Positions 2,107-35,656 of a stretch of DNA of 35,656 nt are shown piece by piece (within the stretch, counting starts at the first letter, position 1; each line of letters opens with the position of its first letter). Position numbers and translations under genes: made by a program. A model generated the notes under the pieces. It was not told where the DNA came from, ran no database searches, and saw only the letters and a list, made by a program, of their open reading frames with translations. The stretch spans positions 1-35,656 of the forward strand of contig CAZOBT010000001.1 of the NCBI GenBank assembly GCA_964578025.1, read 5' to 3'. This DNA is from an uncultured Rhodocyclaceae bacterium (lineage in GTDB: Bacteria > Pseudomonadota > Gammaproteobacteria > Burkholderiales > Rhodocyclaceae).

Positions 2107-2142
2107 GATGGGGAAAACACAACAAGTACAAGGGGTGAACAG

Positions 2143-2976: not shown

Positions 2977-4286
2977 GCTTGATTAATGATGTTCTGAAAA
3001 ATATTGATGCCCGCCAAGCCGGGGAGTTATCCCGCTTGAAACTGAATGCTGACGTGCACCCAGTACCTGAGATCAAACGCAAACCCAAGAAACTCTTGAT
3101 CGGCGGCATTGCTGCGGCTGTCCTAGCCATGCTTGGTGGTGCTGGGTTTTGGTGGTGGCAAACTCAGGGCAATATGCTGGGCGAGACAACACCAACCCCT
3201 CCAGCGATTGCTGCGGCTACCTTGCCACCGGCGACTCCCGTTCCTGCGGCTATTCCTGCGACTGAGCAAACCGGGATCAGCACTGTGAATACAAGCAATG
3301 CACCCGTGCCCCCTAACACGCCGCCAAGTCTACCTAATCCACCTAACCCGCCGAGTACTACCGCTGCTACCAGTGCTGTGGCGACCAACTCCATTCCTAA
3401 CCAAACCAAGCCAGCGAATCAGGACAATAAATCTGCCGGAGAAAAGGTAGAAAAAGCTGAAAAGGCAGAAAAAGCCGCCAAGCCGATGGCGGCAAGCAAA
3501 ACCGAGAAGGCGGAAAAGCCTAAACCCCCAGAAGAAAAAAGTAGTGCCACCCCGGAAGTCAATGGCTCTGCGCTACCGCCTCTGAGCACCGGCAACTCCG
3601 TAGAACGTGAAAAATCCGCGACTAAAACCGCCGGGAAATCTACTGCTGCACCAACAGCCAATGCGGTAAGCCCCCATGCGCACTCTAGTAATGCAGGGGC
3701 AGGCAGTATTTCAATTACCCCAAGTGTGCAAGATGCAAATAGCTTATATAAACAGGGGCAAAGCCAAATTAACGCACGGCGTTTTGAGGAAGGCATTGCC
3801 CAACTCCGCCAAGCCTTACAACAAGACCCAAAACATGTTGCCGCCCGACAACTGCTTTTTCAAACCCTGTTGAATGACTTGGCTCGATCCAATGATGCCC
3901 TAAAGATATTGCAAGAAGGTTTGGAGTTCTATCCACAAAATGCCAACTGGGCTAGCTCGGTGGCACGCTTGCAAGTCGACAAAAACGACTGGCATGGAGC
4001 GCAGGAAGTGCTGGCGAAAGCCTATGGTAGTGGTAACAATAATCCGGCCTATGTTGGCTTTTATGCCCATGTCCAACGTCATCTTGGCAAATCGCAAGAG
4101 GCTGTTGCCTTGTTTACCCAGGCGACTCGTCTTGCTCCCAATGAGGGACGTTGGTGGGTGGGTTTAGCGGATGCCTTAGAGGCAAGTGGGCGCAATGCTG
4201 AAGCTAAACAAGCGTATCGCAGTGCCTTAGAAACCGGAAATTTAAGTGCAGATTTAACGGCACTTGCCGAACGTAAAGCGCGTTAA
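2973..4286 (+). CDS. mshN: TPR-repeat pilus biogenesis protein MshN
   Basis: The ORF is open from 2961. The preferred start is ATG 2973 (MSLINDVLKNID...), which overlaps the mshM stop as ATGA. One TM segment, a long Pro/Ala/Lys-rich linker (KAEKAEKAEKAAK) and C-terminal TPR-like repeats. Confidence 0.7.
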   Translation: MSLINDVLKNIDARQAGELSRLKLNADVHPVPEIKRKPKKLLIGGIAAAVLAMLGGAGFWWWQTQGNMLGETTPTPPAIAAATLPPATPVPAAIPATEQTGISTVNTSNAPVPPNTPPSLPNPPNPPSTTAATSAVATNSIPNQTKPANQDNKSAGEKVEKAEKAEKAAKPMAASKTEKAEKPKPPEEKSSATPEVNGSALPPLSTGNSVEREKSATKTAGKSTAAPTANAVSPHAHSSNAGAGSISITPSVQDANSLYKQGQSQINARRFEEGIAQLRQALQQDPKHVAARQLLFQTLLNDLARSNDALKILQEGLEFYPQNANWASSVARLQVDKNDWHGAQEVLAKAYGSGNNNPAYVGFYAHVQRHLGKSQEAVALFTQATRLAPNEGRWWVGLADALEASGRNAEAKQAYRSALETGNLSADLTALAERKAR

Positions 4287-4333
4287 GCGTATTTGTCTAA
4301 GCTGTCTAAGTCGATCAAGAAAGTAGATGTTTT

Positions 4334-6037
4334 ATGCCGCCACCACCCAAAGTCCGACTTGGTGATCTCTTAATCCAACGTGGTTTATTAACCGAAAATC
4401 AGTTACTGCATGCCCTTGATGAACAGAAAAAAAGTGGGCAACGCTTAGGTCGTATCTTTGTTGATCTTGGCTATGTGAGTGAAGACGATATTGCTTTTTC
4501 CTTGGCTCAACAGTTACGCATTACCTATGTCAACTTACGCCAATTTGCCCCACGTCCAGAATTAACCCGGCTTTTACCCGAAGTGCAAGCCCGCCGTTTT
4601 CGGGCGATGGTGTTGGATGAACTGCCCGATGGGCGTTTACAAGTTGGCTTGGCTGATCCAACTGACCTACAAGCCTATGACGATATTTCGCGGGTAGTCC
4701 GGCGTGAAATTGACATTGCCGTTGTTGCTGAAGGCATGTTGATGTCTTTGATGGATCGGGTGTACCACAAAGGCGAAGAAATTACAGGTTTGGCACGCGA
4801 ACTCACCGCCGAATTAAGCGATGGTGGCGATTTAAGCCAAATGTTTGGCACAGCTTCTGCCGATGACGTACCCGTTGCCAAACTGCTCAATACGGTATTT
4901 GAAGAAGCCATTCGCTTCCGTGCTTCTGACTTACACTTTGAGCCACAAGAAACGACCTTGCGGATTCGTTTTCGTATTGATGGGGCGTTGCATATCCAAA
5001 CCGAAACGGATGTCAAAATTAATTCAGCTTTGGTACTGCGCATGAAGCTGATTTCTGGTTTGGATATTTCGGAAAAACGCTTACCGCAAGACGGTCGCTT
5101 TAACATGAAACTCAGTAATGGTTCGGTCGATGTGCGGATTTCGACCTTGCCAACGCAATATGGCGAATCGGTGGTAATGCGTTTGCTGAACCAAGGTTCG
5201 ATGGCGTTAGAGTTAGACAAAATTGGGATGCCACCGCGTGTGCTAGATCGCTTGCGTCATGCCCTTAGTCGTCCCAGTGGTTTGGTGTTGGTGACTGGGC
5301 CAACAGGCTCAGGGAAAACTACCACGCTGTATTCGGCTTTAAATGACTTGAACAGCCCAGATGCGAAGGTGATTACGGTTGAAGACCCAGTGGAATACCG
5401 TTTGCCAGGTCTGAATCAAGTACAGATTAACGACAAAATCGGTCTAACTTTTGCGCGGGTGTTGCGTACTGTTTTGCGGCAAGACCCGGATGTGGTGCTC
5501 GTTGGGGAAATGCGTGATCAGGAAACGGCTGAAATTGGGATGCGGGCGGCAATGACAGGGCACTTGGTGTTATCCACCCTGCACACCAATGACGCAATGA
5601 CTACCCCAATTCGTTTGCTTGATATGGGCGTACCCAAATTTATGGTGGCTTTGTCCGTGGTCATGGTGTTGGCGCAACGTTTAGTCCGGGTAATTTGTCG
5701 TACCTGTAAAGAACAATACGAACTGCCTAAAGTTGAGCGTGAATGGTTGCGTTATGAACTGGGCGATCATGTTGACCAATACACGTTCTATCATGGTAAA
5801 GGCTGTCCCGAATGTAACCAAACAGGCTACAAAGGACGTACCGGGGTATATGAATTCTTGGAAATGTCGGATGAGTTGGTGGATGCCGCGAATAGTGATG
5901 ACCACACGCTCTTTCTTTCGGCAGCGAAAAAACAAATGGCAGGGGAAACCTTGCGTCGAGATGCCGTGCGTTTAGCCATTTCCGGGAAAACGACAGTTTC
6001 TGAAGCCATGAAGATTAGTAATCAGTACGAAGGCTAA
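4334..6037 (+). CDS. mshE: MSHA pilus extension ATPase MshE (GspE/PilB family) with N-terminal MshEN c-di-GMP-binding domain
   Basis: 567 aa. Two tandem 24-residue MshEN motifs at residues 8-31 and 37-60. Walker A GPTGSGKTT. Tetracysteine CRTC...CPEC typical of GspE-type ATPases. Confidence 0.92.
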   Translation: MPPPPKVRLGDLLIQRGLLTENQLLHALDEQKKSGQRLGRIFVDLGYVSEDDIAFSLAQQLRITYVNLRQFAPRPELTRLLPEVQARRFRAMVLDELPDGRLQVGLADPTDLQAYDDISRVVRREIDIAVVAEGMLMSLMDRVYHKGEEITGLARELTAELSDGGDLSQMFGTASADDVPVAKLLNTVFEEAIRFRASDLHFEPQETTLRIRFRIDGALHIQTETDVKINSALVLRMKLISGLDISEKRLPQDGRFNMKLSNGSVDVRISTLPTQYGESVVMRLLNQGSMALELDKIGMPPRVLDRLRHALSRPSGLVLVTGPTGSGKTTTLYSALNDLNSPDAKVITVEDPVEYRLPGLNQVQINDKIGLTFARVLRTVLRQDPDVVLVGEMRDQETAEIGMRAAMTGHLVLSTLHTNDAMTTPIRLLDMGVPKFMVALSVVMVLAQRLVRVICRTCKEQYELPKVEREWLRYELGDHVDQYTFYHGKGCPECNQTGYKGRTGVYEFLEMSDELVDAANSDDHTLFLSAAKKQMAGETLRRDAVRLAISGKTTVSEAMKISNQYEG

Positions 6038-6046
6038 GCCAATCCC

Positions 6047-7321
6047 ATGCCCAGTTTTAGCTATAAAGGTCGCGCCGTTGACGGTAAAGCGGTACAAGGT
6101 ACATTAGAAGCCCAAGATCAGCGCGATGCGGCAACACAATTGCGTAACCGAGGCATTACGCCATTACAAATTGTGGCAGGTAAAGGTGGGGCGGCAAAAG
6201 CTGGAGCAAAAGGGAAAGCACAAGGTGAGGGCGGGCTGAAAGGGCTAGCATCTATGGATGTTGGTGCATTTTTTCAACCTCCGGTTAAACCCACTGATTT
6301 ACTTTTGTTTACTCGGCAAATCGCCACCTTGCTCAAAGCGGGCGTACCAATCATGCGCGCGCTCTCTGGCTTGCAAGAGTCCACACAGAATCCAACAATG
6401 AAGTCCTTGTTACAAGACATTCGCGAGAAGCTTGATTCGGGGCGTGAACTTTCATCGGCAATGTCAGCACATACCAAAGTCTTTGAACCGTTTTATCTCA
6501 ACATGATTCGTGTTGGCGAACTGACGGGGCAGCTTGATGAAATTTTCCGCCGCTTGTTTACCCACCTTGAATTTGAACAATTTATGCGTGAGCAGGTGAA
6601 ATCAGCCTTGCGCTACCCTTCATTTGTTATTTTGGCGATGCTGATTGCGATTGTGATTTTGAATGCCTATGTAATTCCCGCGTTTGCTAAAGTGTTCCAA
6701 GGCTTTGGTGCTGAATTGCCAACGATGACAAAGATATTGCTCGCAAGTTCGAGTTTTACAGTTAATTATTGGCCTTACATGTTAGTGCCTACCATTTTAT
6801 TGATAGGGGCTTTTAAGTATTGGACTTCCACCAAAAGCGGTAAATACACATGGGATTTCATCAAGTTAAAGATTCCCATTGCAGGCAAGATTATTCTGAA
6901 AGCGTCACTTTCGCGCTTCTCGCGTAGCTTTGCCTTGGCCTTACGTAGTGGTGTGCCATTGATCCAAGCTTTGAATAATGTGTCGCAAACCATGGATAAC
7001 GCCTACATGGTGTCGCGTTTAGAGAAGATGCGCGAGACGATTGAGCGGGGTGAAACGCTAATTCGCGCGGCGGCAGGGGCAACAATCTTCACCCCCATCG
7101 TGTTACAAATGATTGCCGTTGGCGAGGAGTCAGGGGCGATTGACGACATGTTGCAGGAAGTCGCAGAAATTTATCAGCGCGAAGTTGAGTATGAACTGAA
7201 AACATTGAGCCAACAGATTGAACCAATTCTAATTACTTTCCTTGGTGCAATGGTTTTGGTGCTTGCGCTAGGTATTTTCTTACCCATGTGGGATTTGGGT
7301 AAGGCCGCAAAAGGTAAGTAA
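6047..7321 (+). CDS. mshG: Type IV pilus platform protein MshG (GspF/PilC family)
   Basis: 424 aa. Duplicated GspF-type domain architecture with three hydrophobic segments. Lies immediately after mshE. Confidence 0.88.
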   Translation: MPSFSYKGRAVDGKAVQGTLEAQDQRDAATQLRNRGITPLQIVAGKGGAAKAGAKGKAQGEGGLKGLASMDVGAFFQPPVKPTDLLLFTRQIATLLKAGVPIMRALSGLQESTQNPTMKSLLQDIREKLDSGRELSSAMSAHTKVFEPFYLNMIRVGELTGQLDEIFRRLFTHLEFEQFMREQVKSALRYPSFVILAMLIAIVILNAYVIPAFAKVFQGFGAELPTMTKILLASSSFTVNYWPYMLVPTILLIGAFKYWTSTKSGKYTWDFIKLKIPIAGKIILKASLSRFSRSFALALRSGVPLIQALNNVSQTMDNAYMVSRLEKMRETIERGETLIRAAAGATIFTPIVLQMIAVGEESGAIDDMLQEVAEIYQREVEYELKTLSQQIEPILITFLGAMVLVLALGIFLPMWDLGKAAKGK

Positions 7322-7549
7322 TTTTTCACACTTTCTTAAGTCAAGAGTTGGTAAGCAAAAACAGTTACTTTCTGCGCACAAATGTAAGAATAGTTATAGA
7401 TTAGGCAAAGACGCTTTTCTTAATAAATTTTCTGATTACAATGGCCGCAAGTGGAAATTATCAGTGATGCAGAAAATTGAATAATTTCTATATATGTAGT
7501 CTTTAAGCAAAATTGTTCGTTTTTATTATTTCCTCCAAAGGAGTTCAAC
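7322..7549 (+). promoter_or_regulatory. AT-rich intergenic region presumed to hold the major-pilin promoter; RBS AAAGGAG lies about 7 nt before the ATG
   Basis: This 228-bp noncoding gap is the only large gap inside the msh cluster. It has a strong Shine-Dalgarno at about 7537-7543. I could not pin down convincing -35/-10 or sigma-54 GG-N10-GC elements. Confidence 0.3.
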
Positions 7550-8005
7550 ATGAAAAGCAATCGTGGTTTTACCTTGATCGAATTAGTTGTTGTTATCGTT
7601 ATTCTTGGCATCCTCGCTGCCACCGCTCTGCCTAAGTTCGTTGACTTGGGTCAAGATGCTCGCGTTGCTGCCATGAAAGGACTACAAGGCTCTATGCAGG
7701 CAGCAAACACCATTATTTATGCTAAAGCCTCAGTCCAAGCAACTCCAGCATTAGGTGAGGATACGAGCGTGCCAGTTAACGGTGTTAATATCAAAACGGC
7801 TTATGGTTATGCTAAAAATATTGAAGAGCTGAAAAAAGTGCTGGACACTTCTGCTGACTTTGAATTTGACACTACCAATAACAAAGTCAACCATAAGAAT
7901 GCTCCTGATAAAACCAAGTGCGTAATTAAATATGATCCTGCAACCTCTGCCACGGTAGCGCCTGTCTATAGCAGCTCAAGCACGGTTCTAACCTGCGGTA
8001 GCTAA
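7550..8005 (+). CDS. mshA: MSHA major pilin (type IV prepilin, N-methylation site G/FTLIE)
   Basis: 151 aa. Short leader MKSNRG followed by FTLIELVVVIVILGILAA. C-terminal Cys pair (KC...TCGS). Has its own promoter gap upstream and a strong terminator downstream. Confidence 0.85.
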   Translation: MKSNRGFTLIELVVVIVILGILAATALPKFVDLGQDARVAAMKGLQGSMQAANTIIYAKASVQATPALGEDTSVPVNGVNIKTAYGYAKNIEELKKVLDTSADFEFDTTNNKVNHKNAPDKTKCVIKYDPATSATVAPVYSSSSTVLTCGS

Positions 8006-8035
8006 TCTGGTTAGTCCCTTCGGGATGAGCTGATT

Positions 8036-8605
8036 GTGTTAAACGACTTGTCCCAAACAAAACCCCCGTCTCAAAACGGGGGTTTTTTGTCGTTGATTTT
8101 TTGCAGAGATTTCTGCAAAAACCGGGGGTTTACGCTGATTGAGCTGGCAGTGGTGATTACAGTACTTGGCATCGTATTGGCAATTGGTGTGCCACGTTTG
8201 TTAGAGCGTAGTGATTTTGATGCCATGGCATTCCGTCATGAATTGCGTAGTGCAGTGGCGCATGCTCAGCGCGTGGCGATTGCGTCTCGCCGTTTTGTTT
8301 GTATTGAAACGACAGCGAGTATGGTCAGTTTCACCCAAATTGATATTCCACCTGAAAATACCGGGGCAAGCTTAACGTGTACTACGCCGCTGAATTTGCC
8401 CAAAGGCCGACCTTCTTGCGCAGGTAATCCTGACCATCAGATTTGCCCACCGGGGAATGTGCAAATGAGTAATGTGGTGTTTATCTTTGATGCCGCAGGG
8501 CGACCGATTGCGAGTAACAAACAAGTCTTTACGACACCAATTCATATTGGTATTACTGATCAAGATGATTTGATTATTGAAGCTGAATCAGGTCATGTCC
8601 ATTAA
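8036..8605 (+). CDS. MSHA minor pilin (MshB/MshC-like prepilin); the true start is probably TTG 8087 or 8093
   Basis: Prepilin motif KNRG/FTLIELAVVITVLGIVLA. The maximal ORF (GTG 8036) would read through the terminator hairpin and give a 30-aa leader. In-frame TTG codons at 8087 and 8093 give an 11-13 aa leader. Confidence 0.7.
   Translation: MLNDLSQTKPPSQNGGFLSLIFCRDFCKNRGFTLIELAVVITVLGIVLAIGVPRLLERSDFDAMAFRHELRSAVAHAQRVAIASRRFVCIETTASMVSFTQIDIPPENTGASLTCTTPLNLPKGRPSCAGNPDHQICPPGNVQMSNVVFIFDAAGRPIASNKQVFTTPIHIGITDQDDLIIEAESGHVH
8059..8088 (+). terminator. Rho-independent terminator/attenuator after the major pilin gene
   Basis: The stem AAAACCCCCG (8059-8068) pairs with CGGGGGTTTT (8077-8086). 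The loop is 8 nt and a T6 run follows. Confidence 0.8.
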
Positions 8606-9083
8606 GCCTAAAAGCTCTTATCACGCTTATGCCTACTATCATCGCCAACACGGTGTGTTGTTGATTGAGTTAATCATGGCGATTGTGATTGTCAGTACTG
8701 CCCTACTAGGAATTAGTTCGGTCATTAACCTGACGCTGGAAAAAAGTGCCGATCCACTGGTGGTCAAACAACGAATGTTGATTGCCGATGGCTTAATGGA
8801 AGAAATTTTGAGCAAAGCTTATAACGATCCCGGTGTTGGGCATACAGCGACAGGGCAACGCCAGTATTACGATGATATTAATGATTATTCAGGCTTTCAT
8901 ATGGAAGGGATTCGCAGCATTGATGGCACGCCAATCCCTGAACTTGCCGAATATAACGTTAGTGTCAGTGTGACCCCTGCCACATTACCTAATGGCACAG
9001 TCGCCCGCTTAGTTCGGATTGAGGTTAAGGTCAATCGCTACGATGACTATGTATTAGAAAGTTATCGGACAGCGTATGAGTAA
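8577..9083 (+). CDS. mshD: MSHA minor pilin-like protein MshD-like
   Basis: Degenerate prepilin N-terminus HG/VLLIELIMAIVIVS. The alternative start ATG 8595 overlaps the upstream gene. Assigned by position in the operon. Confidence 0.55.
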   Translation: MKLNQVMSIKPKSSYHAYAYYHRQHGVLLIELIMAIVIVSTALLGISSVINLTLEKSADPLVVKQRMLIADGLMEEILSKAYNDPGVGHTATGQRQYYDDINDYSGFHMEGIRSIDGTPIPELAEYNVSVSVTPATLPNGTVARLVRIEVKVNRYDDYVLESYRTAYE

Positions 9084-9954
9084 GCAACTTTGCAGATCAG
9101 GGCGTATGTTGGTGTTACAACAAGGTTTCACTCTTGTTGAGCTAATTGTCACGATGGCGATTTTGGCGGTAGTCGCGGCAATTGTCGTGCAGCCCTTATC
9201 ACAGCCGTTTAAGAACTTCATGGAAATTACGCGGCGGGCGGAATTAAGTGATGCCGCAAACAGTACCTTGCGCCGTCTTGAGCGTGATGTGCATGAAGCC
9301 TTACCGAATAGTCTGCGGCAGCCAAGTAGTACCTGTTTGGAATATTTGCCGATTATTGCCGGGGGGCGGTATCGCGCCAATTTAAGCAGCAGGAATAGCG
9401 GTGATATTCTGGATTTTACGGGTGTGGATAATCGCTTTGATGTGCTTACTGGTTTTGGCCTCAGTGGATTACCCAATGGGGCGCACTTGGTGATTTATAA
9501 CCTAGGCATTCGTGGCGCAAATGCTTATGATCTTGATAACACGGCCTTTATTGCCACTGGGGCAAGCAATGCCAGCTCAGTGACCTTGATGCAAAGTAAA
9601 TTATTTCCATTTGCTTCGCCGGGGCAACGTTTTCAGGTTATCCCGAATGAGTCAAGGGTTTATGCCTGTGTTAACCTTGGACAGGATGCGGAAGGAAACG
9701 GCACTGGCTTATTAGTACGTTATCCCCGGAGCTTAGGGAATAGCGCGTTACCTGCCTTAAACAATTGCCCGGTGAGTACCTCAGAATTGCCCAGTGGCTA
9801 TATCACCCTTGGGCAAAGTTTAAGTCAATGCACCATTAACTATGGCACAGGGGTATATCAGCGCGATGCGGTACTCCAAGTGAATTTGGGTTTAAGTAAG
9901 CAAGAAACCGCGATTCAACTTAGGCATGAAGCACATATTGAAAATGTTCCATAA
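9076..9954 (+). CDS. mshO: MSHA biogenesis prepilin-like protein MshO-like
   Basis: 292 aa. Prepilin motif QQG/FTLVELIVTMAILAVV. The start overlaps the upstream stop. Order D-O-P-Q matches Vibrio MSHA loci. Confidence 0.6.
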   Translation: MSKQLCRSGRMLVLQQGFTLVELIVTMAILAVVAAIVVQPLSQPFKNFMEITRRAELSDAANSTLRRLERDVHEALPNSLRQPSSTCLEYLPIIAGGRYRANLSSRNSGDILDFTGVDNRFDVLTGFGLSGLPNGAHLVIYNLGIRGANAYDLDNTAFIATGASNASSVTLMQSKLFPFASPGQRFQVIPNESRVYACVNLGQDAEGNGTGLLVRYPRSLGNSALPALNNCPVSTSELPSGYITLGQSLSQCTINYGTGVYQRDAVLQVNLGLSKQETAIQLRHEAHIENVP

Positions 9955-10408
9955 CTTGCTTTTATCCCCCTATCGCCAACATGCAGGCTTTGCGTTACCT
10001 GCGGCGGTTTTCGTGTTGGTTATTCTGTCCGGTTTGGCGGCGTTTGCAGCTTCTTTAGCCTCGTTTCAACACAGTGGCTCAAGTCTTGAAGTGGTGGGGC
10101 AACGGGTTTATCACGCGGCACGTTCTGGGCTGGAGTGGGGGATGTATCAGGTACTTACTGCCCCCAGCAGTGCCTGTAATGCCACCGGAACAGATTTAGT
10201 GTTTGCGACAGATTCGCTACAAGGGATAAAGATCAGTGTGCGTTGCCAAGCGTTGAATGTCGATGAGTTAGATGCCGGGCAATTAGTTGAAATTACGGCG
10301 ACCGCCTGTAATGCCCCGCTTAGCACCTCCCCTGCGTGTCCCGGTAATGCGGCCAATAACAATAACTATGTCGAGCGGAAAATGTCCGCCGTGGTGGAAA
10401 AACCCTAG
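9926..10408 (+). CDS. mshP: MSHA biogenesis protein MshP-like
   Basis: 160 aa. N-terminal hydrophobic helix AGFALPAAVFVLVILSGLAAF (degenerate pilin-like). Alternative start ATG 9944. Assigned by position. Confidence 0.5.
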   Translation: MKHILKMFHNLLLSPYRQHAGFALPAAVFVLVILSGLAAFAASLASFQHSGSSLEVVGQRVYHAARSGLEWGMYQVLTAPSSACNATGTDLVFATDSLQGIKISVRCQALNVDELDAGQLVEITATACNAPLSTSPACPGNAANNNNYVERKMSAVVEKP

Positions 10409-10518
10409 CCAGGCTAATTTAATAATAGTTGGTCTATTGTTTATCACCCCATATTTAATGTGATTTTTTGGCTGATTTTTAATTTGGTCTTGTGTTTTGT
10501 GCCTGTTAGGAATTAACC

Positions 10519-12357
10519 ATGCGCCCCCATTTATTTTCTGTTGCAACCTTGCCTCTTGCCTTGGTGTGGGTTATCAGTTTGGCCTTGCCCAATGTGGCGA
10601 TTGCCGCCTTAGGGCGGCTCAATGCTTTTGAGCTAGATGCGTCTGGTACGGCGATTACGGGAAATTTATATACACGGGTAGTGGGGCAAACGCTGCAAAT
10701 TAGCGTAGTAGCACTTAGTCCTTCGAAGCGCGATGTGGATACTGGGACAACTGGCTCAGTCAAAGTGGAACTGCTGGGTGGGCAAGATTTATCGGGCAAC
10801 TTAGATACCAACAATTGCCCGAGCAGTGCCATTGTGGTGACGAGCGCGACGGGGACACTGACCGCCGGGCGGGGTTCAGCGCAACTAAATGTGGGGAATC
10901 AGCCGTTTCTTCATGCGCGTTTACGGTTGTCGTTTCCGGCAACAGGTACGCCAACGTTACAAGCCTGTGCCGAAGATGGCTTTGCGATTCGCCCCAGTGC
11001 CATTACCTTGCGCAGCACCACCAGCACAGGAAGCGCGACCAATACCAACGCTAGTGCTTCCGCAACACCAACGATTAAGGCGGGCAGCAATTTTTCTTTC
11101 AACTTGGAAAGCAATACCACAGGCTATAACGCCACTTTATGGCTAGATCGCTCGCGCTTACAGGCTCACTCGCCCACTGATCCCAGCCAAAATAGCGGTG
11201 GGGTCTTGGGAAATCTGGTGCTAAGCAATGGCGATGGTTTAGCGGTAAATGCCAACCTCAGCAATAACGCGACCTATGACGAAGTCGGCTATCTCAGCTT
11301 TTTGCCGGGCGCATGGCGTGATGATACTTACACCAGTATCGACCAGCCAAATGATTGTGTGCCACAACAAGCCCATGATGTTCCTGATAGTTCGGGTCGC
11401 GTAGGGTGTGCGGTTGGCAATGCCACCAACTATGTCCTTGGACGATTTACGCCCAGCTATTTTGTGATCGTTACCGCTCCGGTGCAGCCTGCTTGTACCA
11501 ATATGACCTACTATGGGCAAACTGGTTTGCAAACGGTGCTGGGTATTTTGGCAAAAGCCAGTAACGACATCATTACCAAGAATTATCAAGGGCAGTTGGC
11601 GCGGCTTGATCCCAACAATCGCAGTCAGTGGCAATTTACGGCGGACAATTTGCCCAGTGGCGTTACCCTCAGTGCTGGGGCAGCGGTGAACACGGGAACT
11701 TGGACGGATGGCAAGATCAATATCTTTCGTGCGGCGCATACGTTTTCTCGCCCAAGTGCGCCAATTGCCCCAGCTGACATTGTGATTAAAGCCCTACCGG
11801 TAGATGCTGATGGGGTAACGTTGGTAAATGGCACGGCTGTACGAGTGCATAACGAAGAAAGTACGCCATTACGCTATGGGCGTTTGCGTCTAATGAATGC
11901 GCATGGTTCAGAGCTGTTACCTTTACCCATGCTCATGAAGACGGAAATGTGGACGGGATCGGCATGGCGTACCAATGTGCAAGACAACTGCACTGGCACA
12001 AGTTTAACGATTCCTAGCAATAAGCCCCGGACACAAACGCCGAATGGTTTGCCCGGTTTATGGTTTAGTGGGGAAGAGGCCAGCATTGCCAATTACCTTG
12101 CGCCCAACGAAACATTTTTAAGCGTTGATTCTTGGGCTAATGGGGCAGGTCGGCTGCGTTTTTCTGCGCCGGGGAATGGCAACATGGGCTGGTTGGATGT
12201 GCTGCTACCTGTTCCCGATCACCTCAAAGGTTTCTGGGGCAATTGCCTTGGGCAAGCGGGGGGCAGTGCCAGTAACTTGAGTAATTACCCTTGTGCGCGT
12301 GCCACTTTTGGCGTTTACTCTTCTGGTAAAGTCGTTTTTCGGCGTGAGATTTACTGA
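10519..12357 (+). CDS. mshQ: Secreted MSHA-associated protein MshQ-like
   Basis: 612 aa with signal peptide MRPHLFSVATLPLALVWVISLALPNVAIA and a beta-rich Thr/Ser/Asn-rich body. It is the last large gene of the cluster. The call rests mainly on position. Confidence 0.45.
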   Translation: MRPHLFSVATLPLALVWVISLALPNVAIAALGRLNAFELDASGTAITGNLYTRVVGQTLQISVVALSPSKRDVDTGTTGSVKVELLGGQDLSGNLDTNNCPSSAIVVTSATGTLTAGRGSAQLNVGNQPFLHARLRLSFPATGTPTLQACAEDGFAIRPSAITLRSTTSTGSATNTNASASATPTIKAGSNFSFNLESNTTGYNATLWLDRSRLQAHSPTDPSQNSGGVLGNLVLSNGDGLAVNANLSNNATYDEVGYLSFLPGAWRDDTYTSIDQPNDCVPQQAHDVPDSSGRVGCAVGNATNYVLGRFTPSYFVIVTAPVQPACTNMTYYGQTGLQTVLGILAKASNDIITKNYQGQLARLDPNNRSQWQFTADNLPSGVTLSAGAAVNTGTWTDGKINIFRAAHTFSRPSAPIAPADIVIKALPVDADGVTLVNGTAVRVHNEESTPLRYGRLRLMNAHGSELLPLPMLMKTEMWTGSAWRTNVQDNCTGTSLTIPSNKPRTQTPNGLPGLWFSGEEASIANYLAPNETFLSVDSWANGAGRLRFSAPGNGNMGWLDVLLPVPDHLKGFWGNCLGQAGGSASNLSNYPCARATFGVYSSGKVVFRREIY

Positions 12358-12394: not shown

Positions 12395-12871
12395 ATGCAA
12401 GAAGATGTGCTCGCCCTCGACAAATTTAGCCATACCTTAGAATGGCTATTGGCATTACAAGGGCGTTATCCCAATTTAATCCAATTTGGGATTATTCATG
12501 TTGAATTTCATAATCGTCAGCGTTTAGGGCAGCTTTATGGGGCAAAAGATGCGATGGCAATGCTGACAAAATTAACCAGTGATCTGCGCCAAAAATTTCG
12601 TAAAACGGATTTGGTCGCCCGTTTGGGGATGGATTTCTGGATTCTTGTGCCGTATACCGAACCGGACACCGTCACGGAAAAAGTCCACACCCTTGTGGAG
12701 TTGGCCTCACAAGCCGGGTTAGGGGTGGTCTCTCGTGATGTGGCTGTGTTTTCGCACCAAGACCCGGTGTTACAAGAGGCAAGCTGTTGTGCAACACCAG
12801 AGTCTTTCTTGCTTTACTTAAAGCGTAATCACAATATCAATCGGCATTGGCAACCGAGTCCAATGCTGTGA
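12395..12871 (+). CDS. Stand-alone degenerate GGDEF-domain protein (GMD-F in place of GGDEF, RxxD I-site retained)
   Basis: 158 aa. The stretch FRKTDLVARLGMDFWILVPYT aligns with the canonical RxxD-x5-GG(D/E)EF-xxxxP block. YGAKDAMAMLTKL matches the GGDEF YGHxxGDxxL region. RBS GAGAGGAAA precedes the ATG. It lies only 37 nt after mshQ on the same strand. Confidence 0.7.
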   Translation: MQEDVLALDKFSHTLEWLLALQGRYPNLIQFGIIHVEFHNRQRLGQLYGAKDAMAMLTKLTSDLRQKFRKTDLVARLGMDFWILVPYTEPDTVTEKVHTLVELASQAGLGVVSRDVAVFSHQDPVLQEASCCATPESFLLYLKRNHNINRHWQPSPML

Positions 12872-21680: not shown

Positions 21681-22808
21681 ATGGAAAAAATCCAATTAGC
21701 TTGTTTGGAAAATTACGAACGCAAAATAGAAACCGCTCGTTCTGGGCATTTTGTGTTTCAGCTTGGGGTAAATCTACAGGAATTACTGTTACCCATGCAG
21801 CGGTTACAGGATGCGCACCAACGCTTTGCCTCTTCGCCCTTGGCAGAAGTGGCTAACCAACTCGAAAAAGAGGTGGTAGTAAGTAGCATCTTCGGCACAA
21901 ATACCATTGAGGGCGGGCAACTTACCGAAGAAGAAACAGAGGCATTGATTGAGCTGAACCCGGCGCAAATCCAAGAAATTGAACAACGTCGAGTGATTAA
22001 CTTGAAAGCCGCCTACATCAAGGCGCAAATGGAAGCAAAAGCCCCTAATTGGCAACTTTCCATCGACTTTATGCAACAAATTCATGCCCTGATTACTCAA
22101 GACATTCCCCATCCAGACAATCGCCCCGGCGTGTTACGCGATACTCCGAAGGGGCGCATGACGTATGTCGGTGCAGAAAGTCACGGTGGGCGATACAAGC
22201 CGCCGCAATATGGTGGGGATGTGGCACGGCTATTACATGAATTGGTGGATTGGCATCACACACTAGAGGCGCACGGTGTTAGCCCGCTGATTCGCGCCCC
22301 GTTGGTGCATTATTACTATGAGCTAATTCATCCTTTCTGGGATGGTAACGGGCGTGTTGGGCGAGTCATTGAGGTCAGCATTTTATTAGCGGCAGGGTAT
22401 CGTTATGCCCCTTTTGCCTTAGCCCGTTTTTACTTGGATAACATCCATGTCTATTTCACGCTGTTTAACCAGTGCCGCAAAGCGGCTGGTAAGCACCAAG
22501 CCTACCCCAATACGCCCTTTGTGCTGTTTCACCAAGAAGGCATGTTAGCAACGGTGAATCACCTGCATGACAGGGTAAATCGTTTTGTGAGTGTGTTGTT
22601 ATTTGAGCGGCGGATTCGTCAATTATTGGATAACAAAACCATCAATGCCCGACAGCACACCATCTTGGCGCAAATCATGGGGAGAAAAATTACCGTAAGC
22701 GAAATTCGCACCGCACCTTGGTATCAAGGGTTGTATTTGAAGCTTAGCGAAAAAACCAAATCCCGTGATCTAAAGCAACTGGTGGAGATGGGGTTGTTGG
22801 GAGACTAG
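21681..22808 (+). CDS. fic: Class II Fic-domain protein (AMPylase family) with N-terminal inhibitory motif and C-terminal wHTH-like tail
   Basis: 375 aa. Fic motif HPFWDGNGRVGR (22329-22364). Inhibitory (S/T)xxxE(G/N) motif TNTIEG (21897-21914) lies N-terminal to it. Confidence 0.88.
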   Translation: MEKIQLACLENYERKIETARSGHFVFQLGVNLQELLLPMQRLQDAHQRFASSPLAEVANQLEKEVVVSSIFGTNTIEGGQLTEEETEALIELNPAQIQEIEQRRVINLKAAYIKAQMEAKAPNWQLSIDFMQQIHALITQDIPHPDNRPGVLRDTPKGRMTYVGAESHGGRYKPPQYGGDVARLLHELVDWHHTLEAHGVSPLIRAPLVHYYYELIHPFWDGNGRVGRVIEVSILLAAGYRYAPFALARFYLDNIHVYFTLFNQCRKAAGKHQAYPNTPFVLFHQEGMLATVNHLHDRVNRFVSVLLFERRIRQLLDNKTINARQHTILAQIMGRKITVSEIRTAPWYQGLYLKLSEKTKSRDLKQLVEMGLLGD

Positions 22809-28899: not shown

Positions 28900-28945
28900 T
28901 CGTTTAGTCGTTGTTTCGTCGTTGTATAAAATAAAAGACCAAATT

Positions 28946-28990
28946 AAAAATAAGCCAATAAACCAAGTTAAATATGGCTTATTGGCTTAT
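28946..28990 (-). terminator. Possible terminator of plsY in the convergent tsaD/plsY gap
   Basis: 10-bp inverted repeat ATAAGCCAAT (28950-28959) / ATTGGCTTAT (28981-28990). The loop is large at 21 nt. A T5 run follows on the minus strand. Confidence 0.35.
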
Positions 28991-29004
28991 AGACTAAAAG
29001 TGGT

Positions 29005-30057: not shown

Positions 30058-30123
30058 TAGGAAATGTATCATTATGTAAATAATGATAAATCTGGCAAAA
30101 ACAAAACAATTTCCTATTATTTA
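30051..30123. repeat. Nested perfect inverted repeats: 15-bp outer arms and a 9-bp inner hairpin with a GTAA loop
   Basis: Outer arms TAAATAATAGGAAAT (30051-30065) and ATTTCCTATTATTTA (30109-30123). Inner arms TATCATTAT (30067-30075) and ATAATGATA (30080-30088). The structure overlaps the folB stop codon. Confidence 0.85.
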
Positions 30124-30220
30124 AATACTATGTTTCGTATGATTGTGCTGCTGTGTAGCAACTTGCCTGTTGCAGTGATTTTGTGACAGCTATCCTAGAT
30201 TTTGAGCAATGAGATAAAAG

Positions 30221-30850
30221 ATGAAGAGTCGTTTTAATCGGATATATAAAAGTGCTATGTGTTGTCTCCGAATAGCAAAGAATATTTTTCTATTTTTATT
30301 ATTGCCTAGTTGTGCATATGCTCAAACAATAGTTGCACCTAACCTCATGGTTATCTTTGCTAATGGTTATTCCATGAACTATTTCTTAGATAATCCAACC
30401 AAGAAAGATGTCCCTGGGGATACGATTGATACAAAAAAACATGACCATTTCAATGACTTAGGGGACATTGACTATTACGGAACTATTTATCCTAAATGGG
30501 GAACGATGTGGTCTGAGAAGTATTACGGCGAGTACAAAAAAAGCAAGATGTATATCGCCAAGCAAGCACTAGGTACGGTTTTGAGTACGTCTGTTTCAGA
30601 TAAAATTAATTTCGGCTTTGCGACGTTTCGCCAGACTTTTGGTATGGAGGCGGCCAGCGTCACTCTGACACAACGCAATGCTTATCTTGTGCCTGTGCCT
30701 AAAGACCGCACTATCTATGACAAAACAACCGCAGAGAAACAAGCTTATGGTTATGACGCAAATAATTTTAGTTACACAGATTGGCCATATATTAGGATTG
30801 GCTATGGTGGGCGTACAGCACAACTTGGTCAAGGGGGGGCTGGACTATAA
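30221..30850 (+). CDS. pilY1: PilY1/PilC-like pilus tip adhesin, N-terminal fragment (signal peptide plus start of a vWA-like domain); ends prematurely after a G7 tract
   Basis: Signal peptide IFLFLLLPSCAYA. NLMVIFANGYSMN aligns with the vWA MIDAS strand (DxSxS degenerated). SKMYIAKQALGTVL...INFGFATF is typical of the PilY1 vWA domain. The stop comes 8 nt after GGGGGGG (30833-30839). Confidence 0.7.
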   Translation: MKSRFNRIYKSAMCCLRIAKNIFLFLLLPSCAYAQTIVAPNLMVIFANGYSMNYFLDNPTKKDVPGDTIDTKKHDHFNDLGDIDYYGTIYPKWGTMWSEKYYGEYKKSKMYIAKQALGTVLSTSVSDKINFGFATFRQTFGMEAASVTLTQRNAYLVPVPKDRTIYDKTTAEKQAYGYDANNFSYTDWPYIRIGYGGRTAQLGQGGAGL

Positions 30851-33791
30851 CAAACAAGTCATTGATGACACTTCGGCGAGCTATACCACTGGTGGCTTGA
30901 TTAGTGTTTTTAAATATAACCCTACAGCATCCGATCAATCTTATTCTCATAGTTTGTATGGCTCTTCTTCTGTTTGGAATGACCTTGGTGCAACAGGAAA
31001 TATCAATCCGCCATCACCAACTAATCCAACAGTGACATGGAAACTCTGTAGAACTGAATTTCTTTCCTCTAGCAGCAACAATTTCCAGGCACTCTATTTA
31101 GCCGATAAAGACATGCCTTTTACATACAAAAACATGTATTCTGTTATGTTTATTGCATGGGGAAGCTCATTTGGGACAGATGGCTATATTGGTGGCAATG
31201 CGTTTACAACATGCCCAGCCCAAAATAATGCTGTATTAGAGGCTGGGCAGCGACGTTTGCGTATTGCAAATACCTATCGTTACAAAGGCGACCCTGCACC
31301 AAGAGTCTATTTTTCGGGGATTGCCAATTATGAGTACACGAGTGGTACAGGGATGCGAGGCGTACTCACCGGCTGGTCAGGGGAAACCACATATACCGAA
31401 ACTGATAGTGTAAATCGTACAGGTACGATGACAGCGAAGTACCCATCTGGCTCAGCCAGCCCATATCGTACCAATGCAGATGGACTGAAGAATGATCGGG
31501 CTTGGCTAGTAACTTCAACAACAACCAAAAATGCCACGCAACAAACTAATGCCAATCATATGGGTGTGTTCCTTGATTTGCCCCAACCCAACCTAGGCTA
31601 CCAAGACCAGCGCGGATTGATCAAAGATTTCATGCGTATAGAGCAAATGAATGATTCTGGTTTGGAATATAACCCTAGCAATCAGAGCATTGCTAACGCA
31701 AAAGGGATTGCAGCCAGTACCTATGCTTGGGCATCTGATCAAAGTCCAATTTATGATTCTTTGCATGGAGCATTGGCCTATTACAAAGCATACAAGGCGG
31801 TTGATACGTTTGATAGTTGTCGTTCCAATAACGTATTACTGCTTTTTGATGGTAAGGAAGATGCACACTGGATACTGGTAAATGGGCAACGGGTTTTTGT
31901 TAAACCGTCGGTGATGGCGGCGAAATTATTAGAGATCGGCGTGAAAACCTACGTTGTTTACCTTAGCTCTACTACTGGGGACATTGCTGATGCCAATGCG
32001 ATTGCCTTAGCTGGGGGAACGACTAAAGCCTACGCAGCTACTGATGCAACAACCTTGTTATCCGCCCTTGGGAGTGTGTTCTCTGGCCTTTCTGGTGAGG
32101 TGTTTACCGCCAGCCCCGCCTTACCTAAAACCTTGTCGGATACGGGTAGCTACGCCTATATTGCCTCACAGGAAAGTAATCCAACGGCAGGACACATGAG
32201 TGCCTACCAAGTGAATGCAAAGGGTGTTGTTGCCAGTGCGGCAAGTTGGGATGCTGCCGCATTGATGACCAATCCCAAGCGACAAAACGCACTATTGTCA
32301 AACAAGGCGGATGGAACGATGTTGGCATTTAACAGCCTTGATGATGCGGCTTTCAGTGCTTCTGGATCACCAGATGTTGCCACAATTAAAGCGTTCACAC
32401 TTGACCCTTCCTACAACTCAGGTGCATATCTGGCTGGGCGGAAGTCTGGGAGCTTTTTAGGGGCATTTAGTGATCAGAGTATTGCCCCTTTTATGCTGTT
32501 GCCAACATCAAACAGCCCCTCCTATTTAACTGATGCAAATTACGCCACATTTTTGCAAAACAACAAGTCGCGTACCAAACAAGTTCTGTTTCAGAATGAC
32601 GATGGTTTCCTGTATTCAGTCAATGCCAGCAGTGGTGATTTGCTCTGGGGGTGGTTGCCTCGTCCTCTAGCTGCTAGCCTAAAGAACTACACAACCTTCT
32701 GGAGTTCTGGCGCAATGCGCGGAGGCTCAGTGATTGTTGATGCCCCTGTAGGGAGTGGTTACGCTAGCTATGTGCTGGGTACAGCAAAAAGTGGAGAAAT
32801 CCATTATGCCTTGCGTTTAGATAGCACAGGCACTCCGGCTAAAGTTTCATGGATCAACCAAGTCAGCGGCATGACTTCGCCAACCGCACAAAGTCCGGTG
32901 GCTACCTACCTGTCCTCTGCACCCTACTACAAAACCTATGCCAATTACCTTGGAGTAAGTGGCACGAGCACCACCTTATATACCCAAGAAGTTGGTGATG
33001 GCACGACGGTCACCAGTGGCGCATTGGGACTGTCGCAACCTGCCACCAGTGAATTAGCCGTGAATCAAGGCACAGGTGTTGCCAAACTCTACTTGGGCGA
33101 TAAGGGGGGCGGCGTGTGGTTACTTGATGCCAGCACCTCAGCCGCCACAGCGGCGAGTAGCCTGACCAAGGCGGGGACACACTACAACAATCAACCTGTG
33201 CGCTATGTTGGTGCGTATACATGGAGTGGCAAGGATTATGTGTGGTCAACCAGTGACAGTGGTATCACGGTGTATGTGAAAGATACTACTAGTTCAACAT
33301 GGAAAAATCTTTGGGAGTCCCATGCTGGTGGTGCTGGGAAATGGGATGTTGAGACCTATACCGCTGACTCAACGGGAGCGAATGCGTCAGCAACAGGGAT
33401 ACAAAGTATTCCGAGTGGTTACAAAATTTCTGCCAGCCCCATTGTGGAAAAAGGCGCATTGATTGTGCCAATTACTCAAGCATCCACAACTGCCGCTGCG
33501 TCTTGTTCTGCTGGCGAAGGCTATTACTACTTCTTCCGCCTTGCGGATGGTTTTTTCCCTAAAGGCATTTTTTCCTTAGTTAAAAGCGATGGCACAACCA
33601 CACCATTAGTTGACAACCTCTATATTGGCAAAGGAAAACCGAAAAAGCCAACACCTGCTTTTGGTTCTGGAGGGAAATTCATTTTTGGGATTTCAGAACA
33701 AACAGGAAGCTCTGGTGGGAAAATGCCCGCTGTCAAAGTGGAAGGCTCTACTGGTGGTATTGTTTCTTGGCGAGAAGTAATTTCCCGATAA
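30678..33791 (+). CDS. pilY1: PilY1/PilC-like pilus tip adhesin, C-terminal fragment; real coding in this frame probably begins at the G7 tract near 30840
   Basis: Rest of the vWA-like region (LLLFDGKEDAHW). C-terminal beta-propeller signature VLFQNDDGFLYSVNASSGDLLWGWLP. The frame-0 translation upstream of the G tract looks non-protein-like. Removing one G fuses both fragments into 1189 codons. Confidence 0.75.
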   Translation: MLILCLCLKTALSMTKQPQRNKLMVMTQIILVTQIGHILGLAMVGVQHNLVKGGLDYNKQVIDDTSASYTTGGLISVFKYNPTASDQSYSHSLYGSSSVWNDLGATGNINPPSPTNPTVTWKLCRTEFLSSSSNNFQALYLADKDMPFTYKNMYSVMFIAWGSSFGTDGYIGGNAFTTCPAQNNAVLEAGQRRLRIANTYRYKGDPAPRVYFSGIANYEYTSGTGMRGVLTGWSGETTYTETDSVNRTGTMTAKYPSGSASPYRTNADGLKNDRAWLVTSTTTKNATQQTNANHMGVFLDLPQPNLGYQDQRGLIKDFMRIEQMNDSGLEYNPSNQSIANAKGIAASTYAWASDQSPIYDSLHGALAYYKAYKAVDTFDSCRSNNVLLLFDGKEDAHWILVNGQRVFVKPSVMAAKLLEIGVKTYVVYLSSTTGDIADANAIALAGGTTKAYAATDATTLLSALGSVFSGLSGEVFTASPALPKTLSDTGSYAYIASQESNPTAGHMSAYQVNAKGVVASAASWDAAALMTNPKRQNALLSNKADGTMLAFNSLDDAAFSASGSPDVATIKAFTLDPSYNSGAYLAGRKSGSFLGAFSDQSIAPFMLLPTSNSPSYLTDANYATFLQNNKSRTKQVLFQNDDGFLYSVNASSGDLLWGWLPRPLAASLKNYTTFWSSGAMRGGSVIVDAPVGSGYASYVLGTAKSGEIHYALRLDSTGTPAKVSWINQVSGMTSPTAQSPVATYLSSAPYYKTYANYLGVSGTSTTLYTQEVGDGTTVTSGALGLSQPATSELAVNQGTGVAKLYLGDKGGGVWLLDASTSAATAASSLTKAGTHYNNQPVRYVGAYTWSGKDYVWSTSDSGITVYVKDTTSSTWKNLWESHAGGAGKWDVETYTADSTGANASATGIQSIPSGYKISASPIVEKGALIVPITQASTTAAASCSAGEGYYYFFRLADGFFPKGIFSLVKSDGTTTPLVDNLYIGKGKPKKPTPAFGSGGKFIFGISEQTGSSGGKMPAVKVEGSTGGIVSWREVISR

Positions 33792-33868
33792 AAAGAACCT
33801 AAAATGTCAAAAATGTGAATAGATTGCTATTGTTCGCATAGCTCTTTTCGTATGATCCCCATTACACA

Positions 33869-34417
33869 ATGAAAGAATATGTTGATATGTTGAACTCTTG
33901 CCACCAAGAACATCGATTATTCCCTAGTAAGAACCGTGGTTTTACTCTTGTAGAGTTAATGGTCACGCTAGCTGTATTAGCGATTTTAGTTAAGTTGGCT
34001 TTGCCAAATTACAGCAATTTCGTTGCTAAGAGTCGCCGTACTGAAGCCACAACCCAACTTTTACAGATAGGTGTATTACAAGAACAGTTTTTCCGAGATT
34101 TCCGAGGCTATGCTGCAGGTAGTAGTGCTACTGGCAGTGCGCCAACTTCTCCGAATTACTTGGATGGAAAAATCGCTTGGGCTGCCCCAACGAATGCTTA
34201 TTTTGATTACACCATTGCCCTAGATACGGCAGGAACAACGAATGACATTAAACGGATGAATTTTGTTGCGACGGCAGATGGTAAATCCGGTACGACAGTC
34301 GATAAATATACCTATGCTATTAACAGTGTTGGTATTCGGTGCTTACGTGAAGATAGTGTTGCGGTTGGTTTAACAGCGACTGCTACGGCTTGCCCTAGTG
34401 GTTCAACTGTGTGGTGA
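33869..34417 (+). CDS. pilE: Type IV minor pilin PilE-like
   Basis: Prepilin motif KNRG/FTLVELMVTLAVLAILVKLALPNYSNFVAKSRRTEA. The likely start is ATG 33887. It follows pilY1 as pilE does in Pseudomonas. Confidence 0.75.
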   Translation: MKEYVDMLNSCHQEHRLFPSKNRGFTLVELMVTLAVLAILVKLALPNYSNFVAKSRRTEATTQLLQIGVLQEQFFRDFRGYAAGSSATGSAPTSPNYLDGKIAWAAPTNAYFDYTIALDTAGTTNDIKRMNFVATADGKSGTTVDKYTYAINSVGIRCLREDSVAVGLTATATACPSGSTVW

Positions 34418-35010
34418 ACATGATGTACCCGAGACAAGCGATGTATCGAAGCCAAGGTTTTACCCTTGTTGAGCTAGGGATTACCTTGGCTGTTGTTGGC
34501 ATTTTGCTTTCAATGGCGGTACCCGCTTATGTGCGTACCGTTGCTGAAAACCGTGCTTTTGCCTTTGTTGAAGCCTTGAAAGTGGATGTGCAATGGGCAC
34601 GGACACAAGCGATGGCACATAACACCTACACAACAATTAATTTTACAGACAACAATTGTTCTACTTGGACTGTGTCAGTTAATGGCAATGTTCTTGAGGG
34701 GCGCGGTATGAGCAATGCCGAGTTGGCAAAGAATTATCCGGGAGTTAGTTGTTCGTTTACTGGCTCAACTCCTACCTTTAATGGTGAGGGAATGTGGGTC
34801 GCTAAGTCGATGGGGACTAATCTTAATGTACTTACCCAGGTTTGTTTGCAGTCTGGTGCGAGCCGCTGTGCGCCAAGTCCCTCGTTTGGTTTTTCCGGGT
34901 TCTCTAGTGGAGCCAATGACTTTGTTGTCACCATCGCTGCAACTGGTACAGATCGAAAATGGCAGATGGGTGTAGGTGGTGCTGGTGATTTACGTCTGGT
35001 GGCACAATGA
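34411..35010 (+). CDS. fimT: GspH/FimT-family type IV minor pilin
   Basis: Prepilin motif SQG/FTLVELGITLAVVGILLSMAVP followed by FAFVEALKVDVQWARTQAM (GspH/FimT-like). The likely start is ATG 34420 or 34423. Confidence 0.7.
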   Translation: MVNMMYPRQAMYRSQGFTLVELGITLAVVGILLSMAVPAYVRTVAENRAFAFVEALKVDVQWARTQAMAHNTYTTINFTDNNCSTWTVSVNGNVLEGRGMSNAELAKNYPGVSCSFTGSTPTFNGEGMWVAKSMGTNLNVLTQVCLQSGASRCAPSPSFGFSGFSSGANDFVVTIAATGTDRKWQMGVGGAGDLRLVAQ

Positions 35011-35462
35011 ACGAATTATTTGCCCCAACCAAATGGAAGACACGCGAAGAGGGTATATCCCTAGTTAGTGTGTTGATCGCCATTATTGTGTTTGCCTTTG
35101 GCTCGTTAGCGTTAGTGAATGCCTACGTCAAAAGCAGAGCCGTGGTCACAGATAACAAATATTATTTAACGGCAAGTAATTTGGCTGAGTCATTACGTGG
35201 AACGTTGATCTTCTCTACCACATCACTTGCTGCTGCTAATGGTTTTAGTACCGACGGTAGTTCAGGTGATACCCAACTAGTGGCATGGGGAAATCGGGTA
35301 AAAAATGAATTGCCGTCAGGAAGTGCAACTGTCAAAACGGTTGATCCGGTCACAAGCAGTGATAAAACTTGCACAACAGCACCTTGCACAGTACAGGTAA
35401 CTATTTCGTGGCAAAAAGACCTCAAACATACAAAAACTTACCTTTTACAGATAGGGTTTTAG
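35007..35462 (+). CDS. pilV: Type IV pilus minor pilin PilV-like
   Basis: 151 aa. The N-terminus EEG/ISLVSVLIAIIVFAFGSLAL is typical of PilV. ATGA start/stop overlap with the upstream gene. Confidence 0.65.
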   Translation: MNELFAPTKWKTREEGISLVSVLIAIIVFAFGSLALVNAYVKSRAVVTDNKYYLTASNLAESLRGTLIFSTTSLAAANGFSTDGSSGDTQLVAWGNRVKNELPSGSATVKTVDPVTSSDKTCTTAPCTVQVTISWQKDLKHTKTYLLQIGF

Positions 35463-35465
35463 CAC

Positions 35466-35656
35466 ATGTCTAATTTGCCTAATTCCCGACTAAATTCTCG
35501 ATTCGCATCAGTGCGTGGTTTTGGCCTAGTTGAGCTGATGGTGGCAATTGTTGTCACACTCATCCTTGGTGTTGCTGTGGCTGCTTTGTTTTCTTATTTA
35601 ACAGGTCAAGCGACAAGACAACGAGATGATATAGAAGTGATTCGAGCCTCTCGTGC
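35466..35656 (+). CDS. pilW: Type IV minor pilin PilW-like, 3'-truncated by the window edge
   Basis: Not in the ORF track, which has no stop for it inside the window. My translation from ATG 35466 is MSNLPNSRLNSRFASVRG/FGLVELMVAIVVTLILGVAVAALFSYLTGQATRQRDD..., a prepilin N-terminus with the PilW-like YL.G motif. Confidence 0.6.
   Translation, partial: MSNLPNSRLNSRFASVRGFGLVELMVAIVVTLILGVAVAALFSYLTGQATRQRDDIEVIRASR

Follow-up and report, generated by a model that had tools for sequence, protein, structure and literature searches.

A single-base frameshift at a run of seven guanines interrupts a gene of the PilY1 family in one assembly of an uncultured Rhodocyclaceae bacterium. The window analysed here, a stretch of 35,656 nucleotides, contains the sequence GGGGGGG at exactly 30833–30839, within a gene on the + strand. 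One gene is split exactly at this run, and among the 12 assemblies compared the split is unique to this one. As its cause, we favour a very recent, non-programmed slipped-strand insertion of one G into a chance G6 run of a divergent PilY1-family gene, an explanation to which we give about an even chance of being correct. The event itself is a further example of a known, ordinary kind. For annotation, we advise caution: the two open reading frames belong to one PilY1-family gene and are best annotated as such, with a frameshift or mis-assembly confined to this contig.

A first-pass annotation had taken the upstream open reading frame, ORF1 (30221–30850, 209 aa), and the downstream one, ORF2 (30678–33791, in the +1 frame relative to ORF1), for two halves of one gene, and the comparison with public sequences bears this out. 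Deletion of one G in silico produced an uninterrupted open reading frame of 1189 codons, in which the junction reads ..LGQGGLDYNKQVIDD.., and the repaired 1189-aa protein is the exact product of the intact gene in SRR28338924 (contig L002). From 30103 to 34754, the single extra G is the only difference between the window and L002, confirming the break at the G run that the annotation had proposed. In the in-frame alleles, the G6 run consists of two adjacent GGG codons encoding Gly205-Gly206; in the window, the run comprises codons 205–206 and one extra G, so that the G6 of the relatives is expanded by one base and a stop codon is reached in the ORF1 frame four codons past the run. A G8 version, with one G added, is also out of frame.

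The 5′ fragment of the gene (30221–30850, + strand) encodes the signal peptide, strand 1 and helix 1 of a von Willebrand factor A (vWA)-like core and the start of an insertion, and ends at a TAA past the frameshift. The remaining 983 codons (30840–33791, + strand), now in the +1 frame, encode the rest of the insertion, the second half of the core and the beta-propeller. This downstream part is fully open, and its nucleotide sequence is identical to that of the intact alleles, with no difference from L002; the 995-aa length of the NCBI product implies a restart at the ATG at 30804. ORF1 thus holds the signal peptide and the start of the vWA region, as first annotated, while the placing of the break within the vWA-like domain had to be revised: the tract lies outside the core, in a variable, indel-rich stretch of the beta-rich insertion (approximately residues 138–500) by which the core is split. 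The length of the G7 run is no more than chance expectation. It is the sole G/C run of at least 7 bases in the window, against 2.8 expected from mononucleotide shuffles of the window, and runs of at least 6 bases number 9, against 10.8 expected; GGG accounts for 24% of the Gly codons in the window’s genes.

Alleles of the tract were collected from contigs that encode near-identical proteins or carry the window’s exact FolB just upstream, and 11 other assemblies were found to span the site. This small sample represents the same species-level population, and seven of its members are SRR192384xx runs from one accession series. The site reads CAA GGG GGG CTG (G6) in 10 of the 11 (SRR28338924, SRR32910794, SRR13003747, SRR19238465, -68, -70, -76, -78, -82 and -85), in agreement with the earlier proposal that six Gs restore the full-length gene of 1189 codons. 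In the eleventh, ERR12320369 (L001), it reads CAA GGA GGG CTT, the run being interrupted synonymously and in frame. All 11 are in frame, and G5, G7, G8 and G9 were seen in none of them, at the resolution of metagenome assemblies, which report the majority state only and would let low-level G6/G7 switching within populations escape. Six alleles match the window base for base, the extra G aside, over the part of the gene that each contig covers, suggesting that the change is very recent and was followed by no decay.

Protein-level searches gave a similar picture. A near-identical 1189-aa protein was recovered that differs from the restored protein by four substitutions; its 90% cluster contains three intact versions from Logan assemblies together with the window’s 995-aa C-terminal call, and the truncated 209-aa product is a singleton in a collection of ~15 billion proteins. 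The next-nearest orthologue (59% identity, contig L017 of SRR16308657) reads CAAGGAGCTGAC at the site, and the tract is absent. Among 13 orthologues from other species, the longest G/C run ranges from 5 to 7 bases, including some in-frame G7 runs, and none reaches 8. JGI metagenome contigs scanned for the flanks together with any tract of 5–10 nt gave 0 matches, and a search for an independent assembly of the same strain via the window-specific PilV allele found contigs that end before the tract.

The assignment of the gene to the PilY1 family had also been part of the first-pass annotation, and it is upheld by a profile match, a predicted fold and the neighbouring genes. The label therefore denotes distant homology and conserved linkage, which together support a divergent PilY1 relative. 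The restored protein matched no family in Pfam or NCBIfam at E ≤ 0.01. Its homologues, 24 detectable cluster representatives among 5.8 billion protein clusters, are 1185–1327 aa long, and none of the 24 matched the PilY1/PilC models (Pfam PilY1/Neisseria_PilC and NCBIfam), even at E ≤ 1. When a profile of this 24-member family was searched against PDB sequences, the only match was 3HX6 (3hx6_A), the C-terminal domain of Pseudomonas aeruginosa PilY1 (PaPilY1), with an E value of 8.8e-11 and an alignment of profile positions 738–971 to chain residues 38–286. The size of the restored protein, 1189 aa, falls within the ~1000–1300 aa of the PilY1/PilC family. Its N-terminus, MKSRFNRIYK..IFLFLLLPSCAYA followed by QT, displays n-, h- and AXA-type c-regions, and as read from the sequence it represents a putative Sec-type signal peptide of approximately codons 1–34, with ..SCAYA before and QT.. 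after the predicted cleavage site. The nearest named homologue, at 43% identity, is from Crenothrix polyspora; the hosts of the family are Crenothrix, Thiotrichales, Sedimenticola, Chromatiaceae and Halothiobacillus-type genomes and metagenome-assembled genomes.

An AlphaFold model of the restored protein, built with the family alignment (mean pLDDT 79.6), predicts a disordered, helical N-terminal signal region, an alternating beta/alpha core (strand 41–46, helix 109–121, strand 130–135, and helices and strands within 510–622) that is split by a beta-rich insertion of ~360 residues, and a C-terminal all-beta domain (approximately residues 780–1175) forming a beta-propeller. In a Foldseek search against the PDB, the C-terminal domain retrieved many beta-propellers (BamB, LGI1-EPTP and WD40 proteins), and 3HX6 was absent from the top 50; these generic matches support the fold without being specific to PilY1. 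For the core, Pfam VWA matched 4 of the 24 full-length family members (best E 0.022) and 8 of 19 cores from which the insertion had been excised (best E 3.1e-4), and a profile of the insertion-excised core found nothing credible among PDB sequences. The vWA assignment is accordingly plausible but weak. The metal-ion-dependent adhesion site (MIDAS) motif DxSxS is replaced by G-N-S-x-S-M in the family, in which the N and the second S are invariant across the subfamily, and by A-N-G-Y-S-M in the window protein.

An EF-hand-like Ca2+ loop controls extension and retraction in PaPilY1 and in the PilC proteins of Neisseria and Kingella. At the position of the PaPilY1 loop ..ADNNSDGVAD.., the window protein reads ..AVNQGTGVAK.., and the family loop is shorter and non-acidic, the alignment there being approximate. 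The acidic Ca2+-binding loop of PaPilY1 thus has no counterpart at the aligned position, and a site elsewhere in the protein is possible. By sequence, then, two features of the PilY1 family are missing from this divergent subfamily: the curated models do not match it, and it has no Ca-binding loop at the aligned position. More general interest than the frameshift would attach to a deeply divergent PilY1 subfamily that escapes the present family models.

Directly downstream of the split gene are genes resembling the core minor pilins. The first (33869–34417, + strand) encodes a PilE/ComP-like type IV pilin of 182 aa that matches Pfam N_methyl and ComP_DUS above cut-off. It is followed by a FimT/FimU (GspH-like) minor pilin gene (34441–35010, + strand; 189 aa as called in L001 and L002, with a mechanical ORF start at 34411), which matches Pfam N_methyl and, weakly and below cut-off, NCBIfam GspH and ComGD. 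A PilV-like minor pilin gene (35007–35462, + strand, 151 aa) matches TIGR02523 type_IV_pilV at E 8.8e-9, below the curated cut-off. The 5′ part of a PilW-like minor pilin gene (35466–35656, + strand) is cut by the window end; its equivalent in L002 scores 29 bits against the Pfam PilW cut-off of 26, and PilW is above the Pfam cut-off in both L002 and L017. Beyond PilW, synteny with relatives indicates a 175-aa open reading frame occupying the PilX position, followed by a CbiA/GATase_3 gene. A promoter and terminator scan of the region gave results at chance level and was uninformative.

Taken against P. aeruginosa PilY1 and its fimU-pilVWXY1E module, the window locus shares a large secreted protein of ~1200 aa, a C-terminal beta-propeller, a putative N-terminal vWA-like Rossmann core (Pfam VWA in 8 of 19 excised cores, best E 3e-4) and linkage to PilE-, FimT/U-, PilV- and PilW-like genes. 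The window protein differs from P. aeruginosa PilY1 in having no Pfam or NCBIfam match, the PilY1/PilC family model included, in a non-canonical MIDAS, in an acidic Ca-binding loop that is not conserved at the aligned position, and in a vWA core split by the ~360-residue beta-rich insertion. Gene order also varies: the PilY1 gene precedes the minor pilins in the window lineage, whereas it stands last in the loci of L017 and Crenothrix polyspora.

The tip module, a PilY1-like gene with five pilin genes, spans ~6.8 kb and was compared between the window (30100–35656), L017 (2566–9333) and L002 (3499–10338). The shared flanks are tsaD-plsY-folB on the left and the CbiA/GATase_3 gene on the right. 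In L017, these flanks are 95–97% identical to the window type, with protein identities of 97% for TsaD, 99.5% for PlsY and 94% for FolB; its module proteins are 41–62% identical to the window type, with no megablast-detectable DNA similarity. The window-type order is folB, PilY1, pilin, FimT, PilV, PilW and the PilX position, and the L017 order is pilin, FimT, PilV, PilW, the PilX position and PilY1; the Crenothrix polyspora locus (L004) runs pilin, FimT, PilV and then PilY1. From these sequences, the tip module as a whole behaves like an exchangeable cassette, set between chromosomal flanks that are nearly identical. Such a cassette, like the divergent subfamily, would be of more general interest than the frameshift.

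In L003 and L033, the PilY1-like gene diverges from that of the window in the signal-peptide region (window 30140–30350) and further downstream, overall identity being 88% for L003. For L030 and L031, no difference from the window occurs up to 33040, beyond which the divergence is sharp (33041–33474). These mosaic PilY1-like alleles suggest recombination within the gene.

Returning to the frameshift, nothing else in the gene has changed, so the split is either very recent or artefactual, and the eleven other assemblies are intact, which argues for an ordinary recent mutation or an assembly error and not for a built-in switch. Both a recent null allele and a homopolymer error thus stand as explanations. 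A fixed pseudogene, the other alternative that had been raised, is ruled out insofar as an old one is meant: the gene carries no further disabling changes and its sequence is identical to that of intact alleles.

On the favoured reading of recent slippage, the frameshift truncates the protein after 209 residues and leaves 983 codons, including the PilY1-type beta-propeller, out of frame. A product restarted inside ORF2, at the ATG at 30804, would lack a signal peptide, and hence no full-length tip protein would be exported. Polarity on the pilin genes is also conceivable: the gene stands first in the cluster (PilY1, pilin, FimT, PilV, PilW and the PilX position), so that the minor pilins behind it may be expressed less strongly when ~2.9 kb of mRNA goes untranslated. 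In a population carrying the allele, the tip or priming complex of this type IVa pilus would thus be defective. A loss-of-function allele of this kind could be favoured, for example under pressure from pilus-dependent phages. Reversion from G7 to G6 would be possible at the ordinary rate of a short homopolymer, the site not being an evolved contingency locus. Loss of function, polarity and selective advantage are consequences that we infer from the allele and its position. What weighs against recent slippage is that a singleton difference from otherwise identical alleles is exactly what an error would look like, and that the longest G/C run in the window is the likeliest place for one.

That the organism truly carries G6 and an intact gene, the seventh G having arisen in one contig through a miscalled homopolymer, polishing or the mixing of strains, is a serious contender, to which we assign an appreciable but clearly less than even likelihood. 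The window holds the only G7 among the 12 assemblies, the rest of its gene is identical to six intact alleles over the stretch that each contig covers, the site is the window’s longest G/C run, and the truncated product is found nowhere else. Ordinary homopolymer frameshift pseudogenes and draft-assembly errors share this appearance, a single +1 at the longest G/C run of one assembly in an otherwise pristine gene; the sole difference here is that no second such event occurs in the window.

This cleanness was assessed in several ways. When +1 and −1 changes were simulated at all 187 homopolymers of at least 5 bases, a long open reading frame was restored at the G7 run only, the sole other simulated “gain” being a trivial fusion of the adjacent yqeY and rpsU; the other 186 homopolymers, 54 of them of at least 6 bases, displayed no frameshift signature. 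Over ~24 kb of the window that could be compared with assemblies of 95–99.7% identity, all indels apart from the tract were multiples of three, compensated or intergenic, and all other scanned genes of the window gave full-length domain matches. With no other uncompensated 1-nt coding indel in those ~24 kb, the contig does not seem generally prone to homopolymer errors, and its otherwise clean state favours a real variant. In addition, the 42.7-kb contig is of a size more typical of short-read assembly, in which G7 miscalls would be rare. The clean remainder of the window and the contig size tilt the balance towards a real allele; that the difference is a singleton at the longest G/C run speaks for an artefact.

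The first-pass annotation had raised a third reading, an evolved slipped-strand switch like that of Neisseria pilC, in which G6 would be ON and G7 OFF for the tip protein; we consider it improbable. The likeness to pilC1 and pilC2 of N. gonorrhoeae and N. meningitidis lies in a change of frame, attributable to slipped-strand mispairing, exactly at a G homopolymer of a PilY1/PilC-family gene. The OFF allele carries no secondary damage and would hence be reversible, and in this species, diversifying pressure clearly acts on the tip module. The Neisseria pilC tract reportedly lies in the signal-peptide region, unlike the tract here, which is at codon 205 in a variable loop. Phase variation of pilC by slippage in its poly-G tract provides the precedent (Jonsson 1991, as cited in PMC4471445; PMC5953494).

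The tract itself argues against such a switch. Comparison of related genomes had been set beforehand as the check, and the relatives are essentially uniform at G6 (10 with G6 and one with an in-frame GGAGGG), with one length in 10 of the 11 other assemblies and no G5, G8 or G9. Runs of six or seven Gs are below switching lengths: the PhasomeIt cut-off is G ≥ 9 and pilC is listed at G9–20, varying widely between isolates (PMC5953494), and deep sequencing identified homopolymers of at least 8 bases as the variable ones in Neisseria (PMC5084427). Short-run switching is nonetheless conceivable, because rare variation has been found in Neisseria at the 7-base run of siaD and the C5/C6 run of NMB1760 (PMC5953494, PMC5084427). 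Whereas the pilC tracts are conserved features of the pathogens’ alleles, the tract here, G6 in 10 of 11 assemblies and G7 in the window only, is interrupted synonymously in one allele at no apparent cost and has no counterpart in the nearest orthologue or in other family members; such runs are also not enriched over chance. Of the features of a contingency locus, then, neither the tract length, nor length polymorphism between strains, nor conservation or enrichment of the tract is found. We rank the switch below the null allele and the error because the tract is neither conserved nor enriched and is below switching lengths.

As the first gene in its cluster, the gene may, in an extension of the switch, toggle the whole tip-complex operon. 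Less probable still is a more specific form, in which the PilY1-like gene has moved to the head of the minor-pilin operon and its short G6/G7 run switches reversibly and at low frequency, silencing the tip protein together with, through polarity, the whole priming complex. If true, it would mean that an uncultured, free-living gammaproteobacterium turns its pilus tip ON and OFF in the manner of pilC, for example to evade phages specific to the pilus. Mixed G6 and G7 within populations, if found, would show that pilC-type phase variation also occurs in environmental bacteria, outside host-adapted Neisseria, and at tracts that are unusually short.

Finally, synthesis of the full-length protein from the G7 allele by ribosomal +1 frameshifting or transcriptional slippage is very improbable: GGG GGG G would let tRNA-Gly re-pair in the +1 frame, and both frames are fully open on either side of the tract, but the in-frame stop lies four codons past the run instead of at the shift site, most known slippage sites are A/T runs of at least 9 bases, and all relatives and orthologues encode the protein in a single frame, which rules out programmed frameshifting as a conserved state.

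Several other features of the window and its relatives were recorded. SRR28338924 (L002 1356–2472) and SRR13003747 carry a 1.1-kb insertion between tsaD and plsY (window 28904–29004) that is absent from the window and most other assemblies; it contains a 288-aa open reading frame with no Pfam or NCBIfam match. At 280–12357, the window holds a complete MSHA-type pilus cluster, comprising a secretin, an AAA_22 MshM-like protein, a TPR MshN-like protein, an MshE ATPase with an MshEN domain, a T2SSF platform protein, four or five prepilin-like genes and a DUF6701 MshQ-like gene. It would therefore constitute a second type IV filament system besides the one with the frameshifted gene. Its pilin region is an indel hotspot between strains (~8089–8120), and an 18-bp in-frame indel (AGAAAAAGCTGAAAAGGC) in the TPR MshN-like gene (3449–3466) is present in the window and absent from L019 and L025. 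Past the cluster, a 158-aa open reading frame (12395–12871) is matched by the central part of the GGDEF domain only (profile positions 32–108 of 161); its length is conserved in L018, which suggests a short, possibly degenerate GGDEF-like protein with no window-specific break. A Fic/DOC-family gene (21681–22808, 375 aa) lies between an M48 peptidase gene and rpoD.
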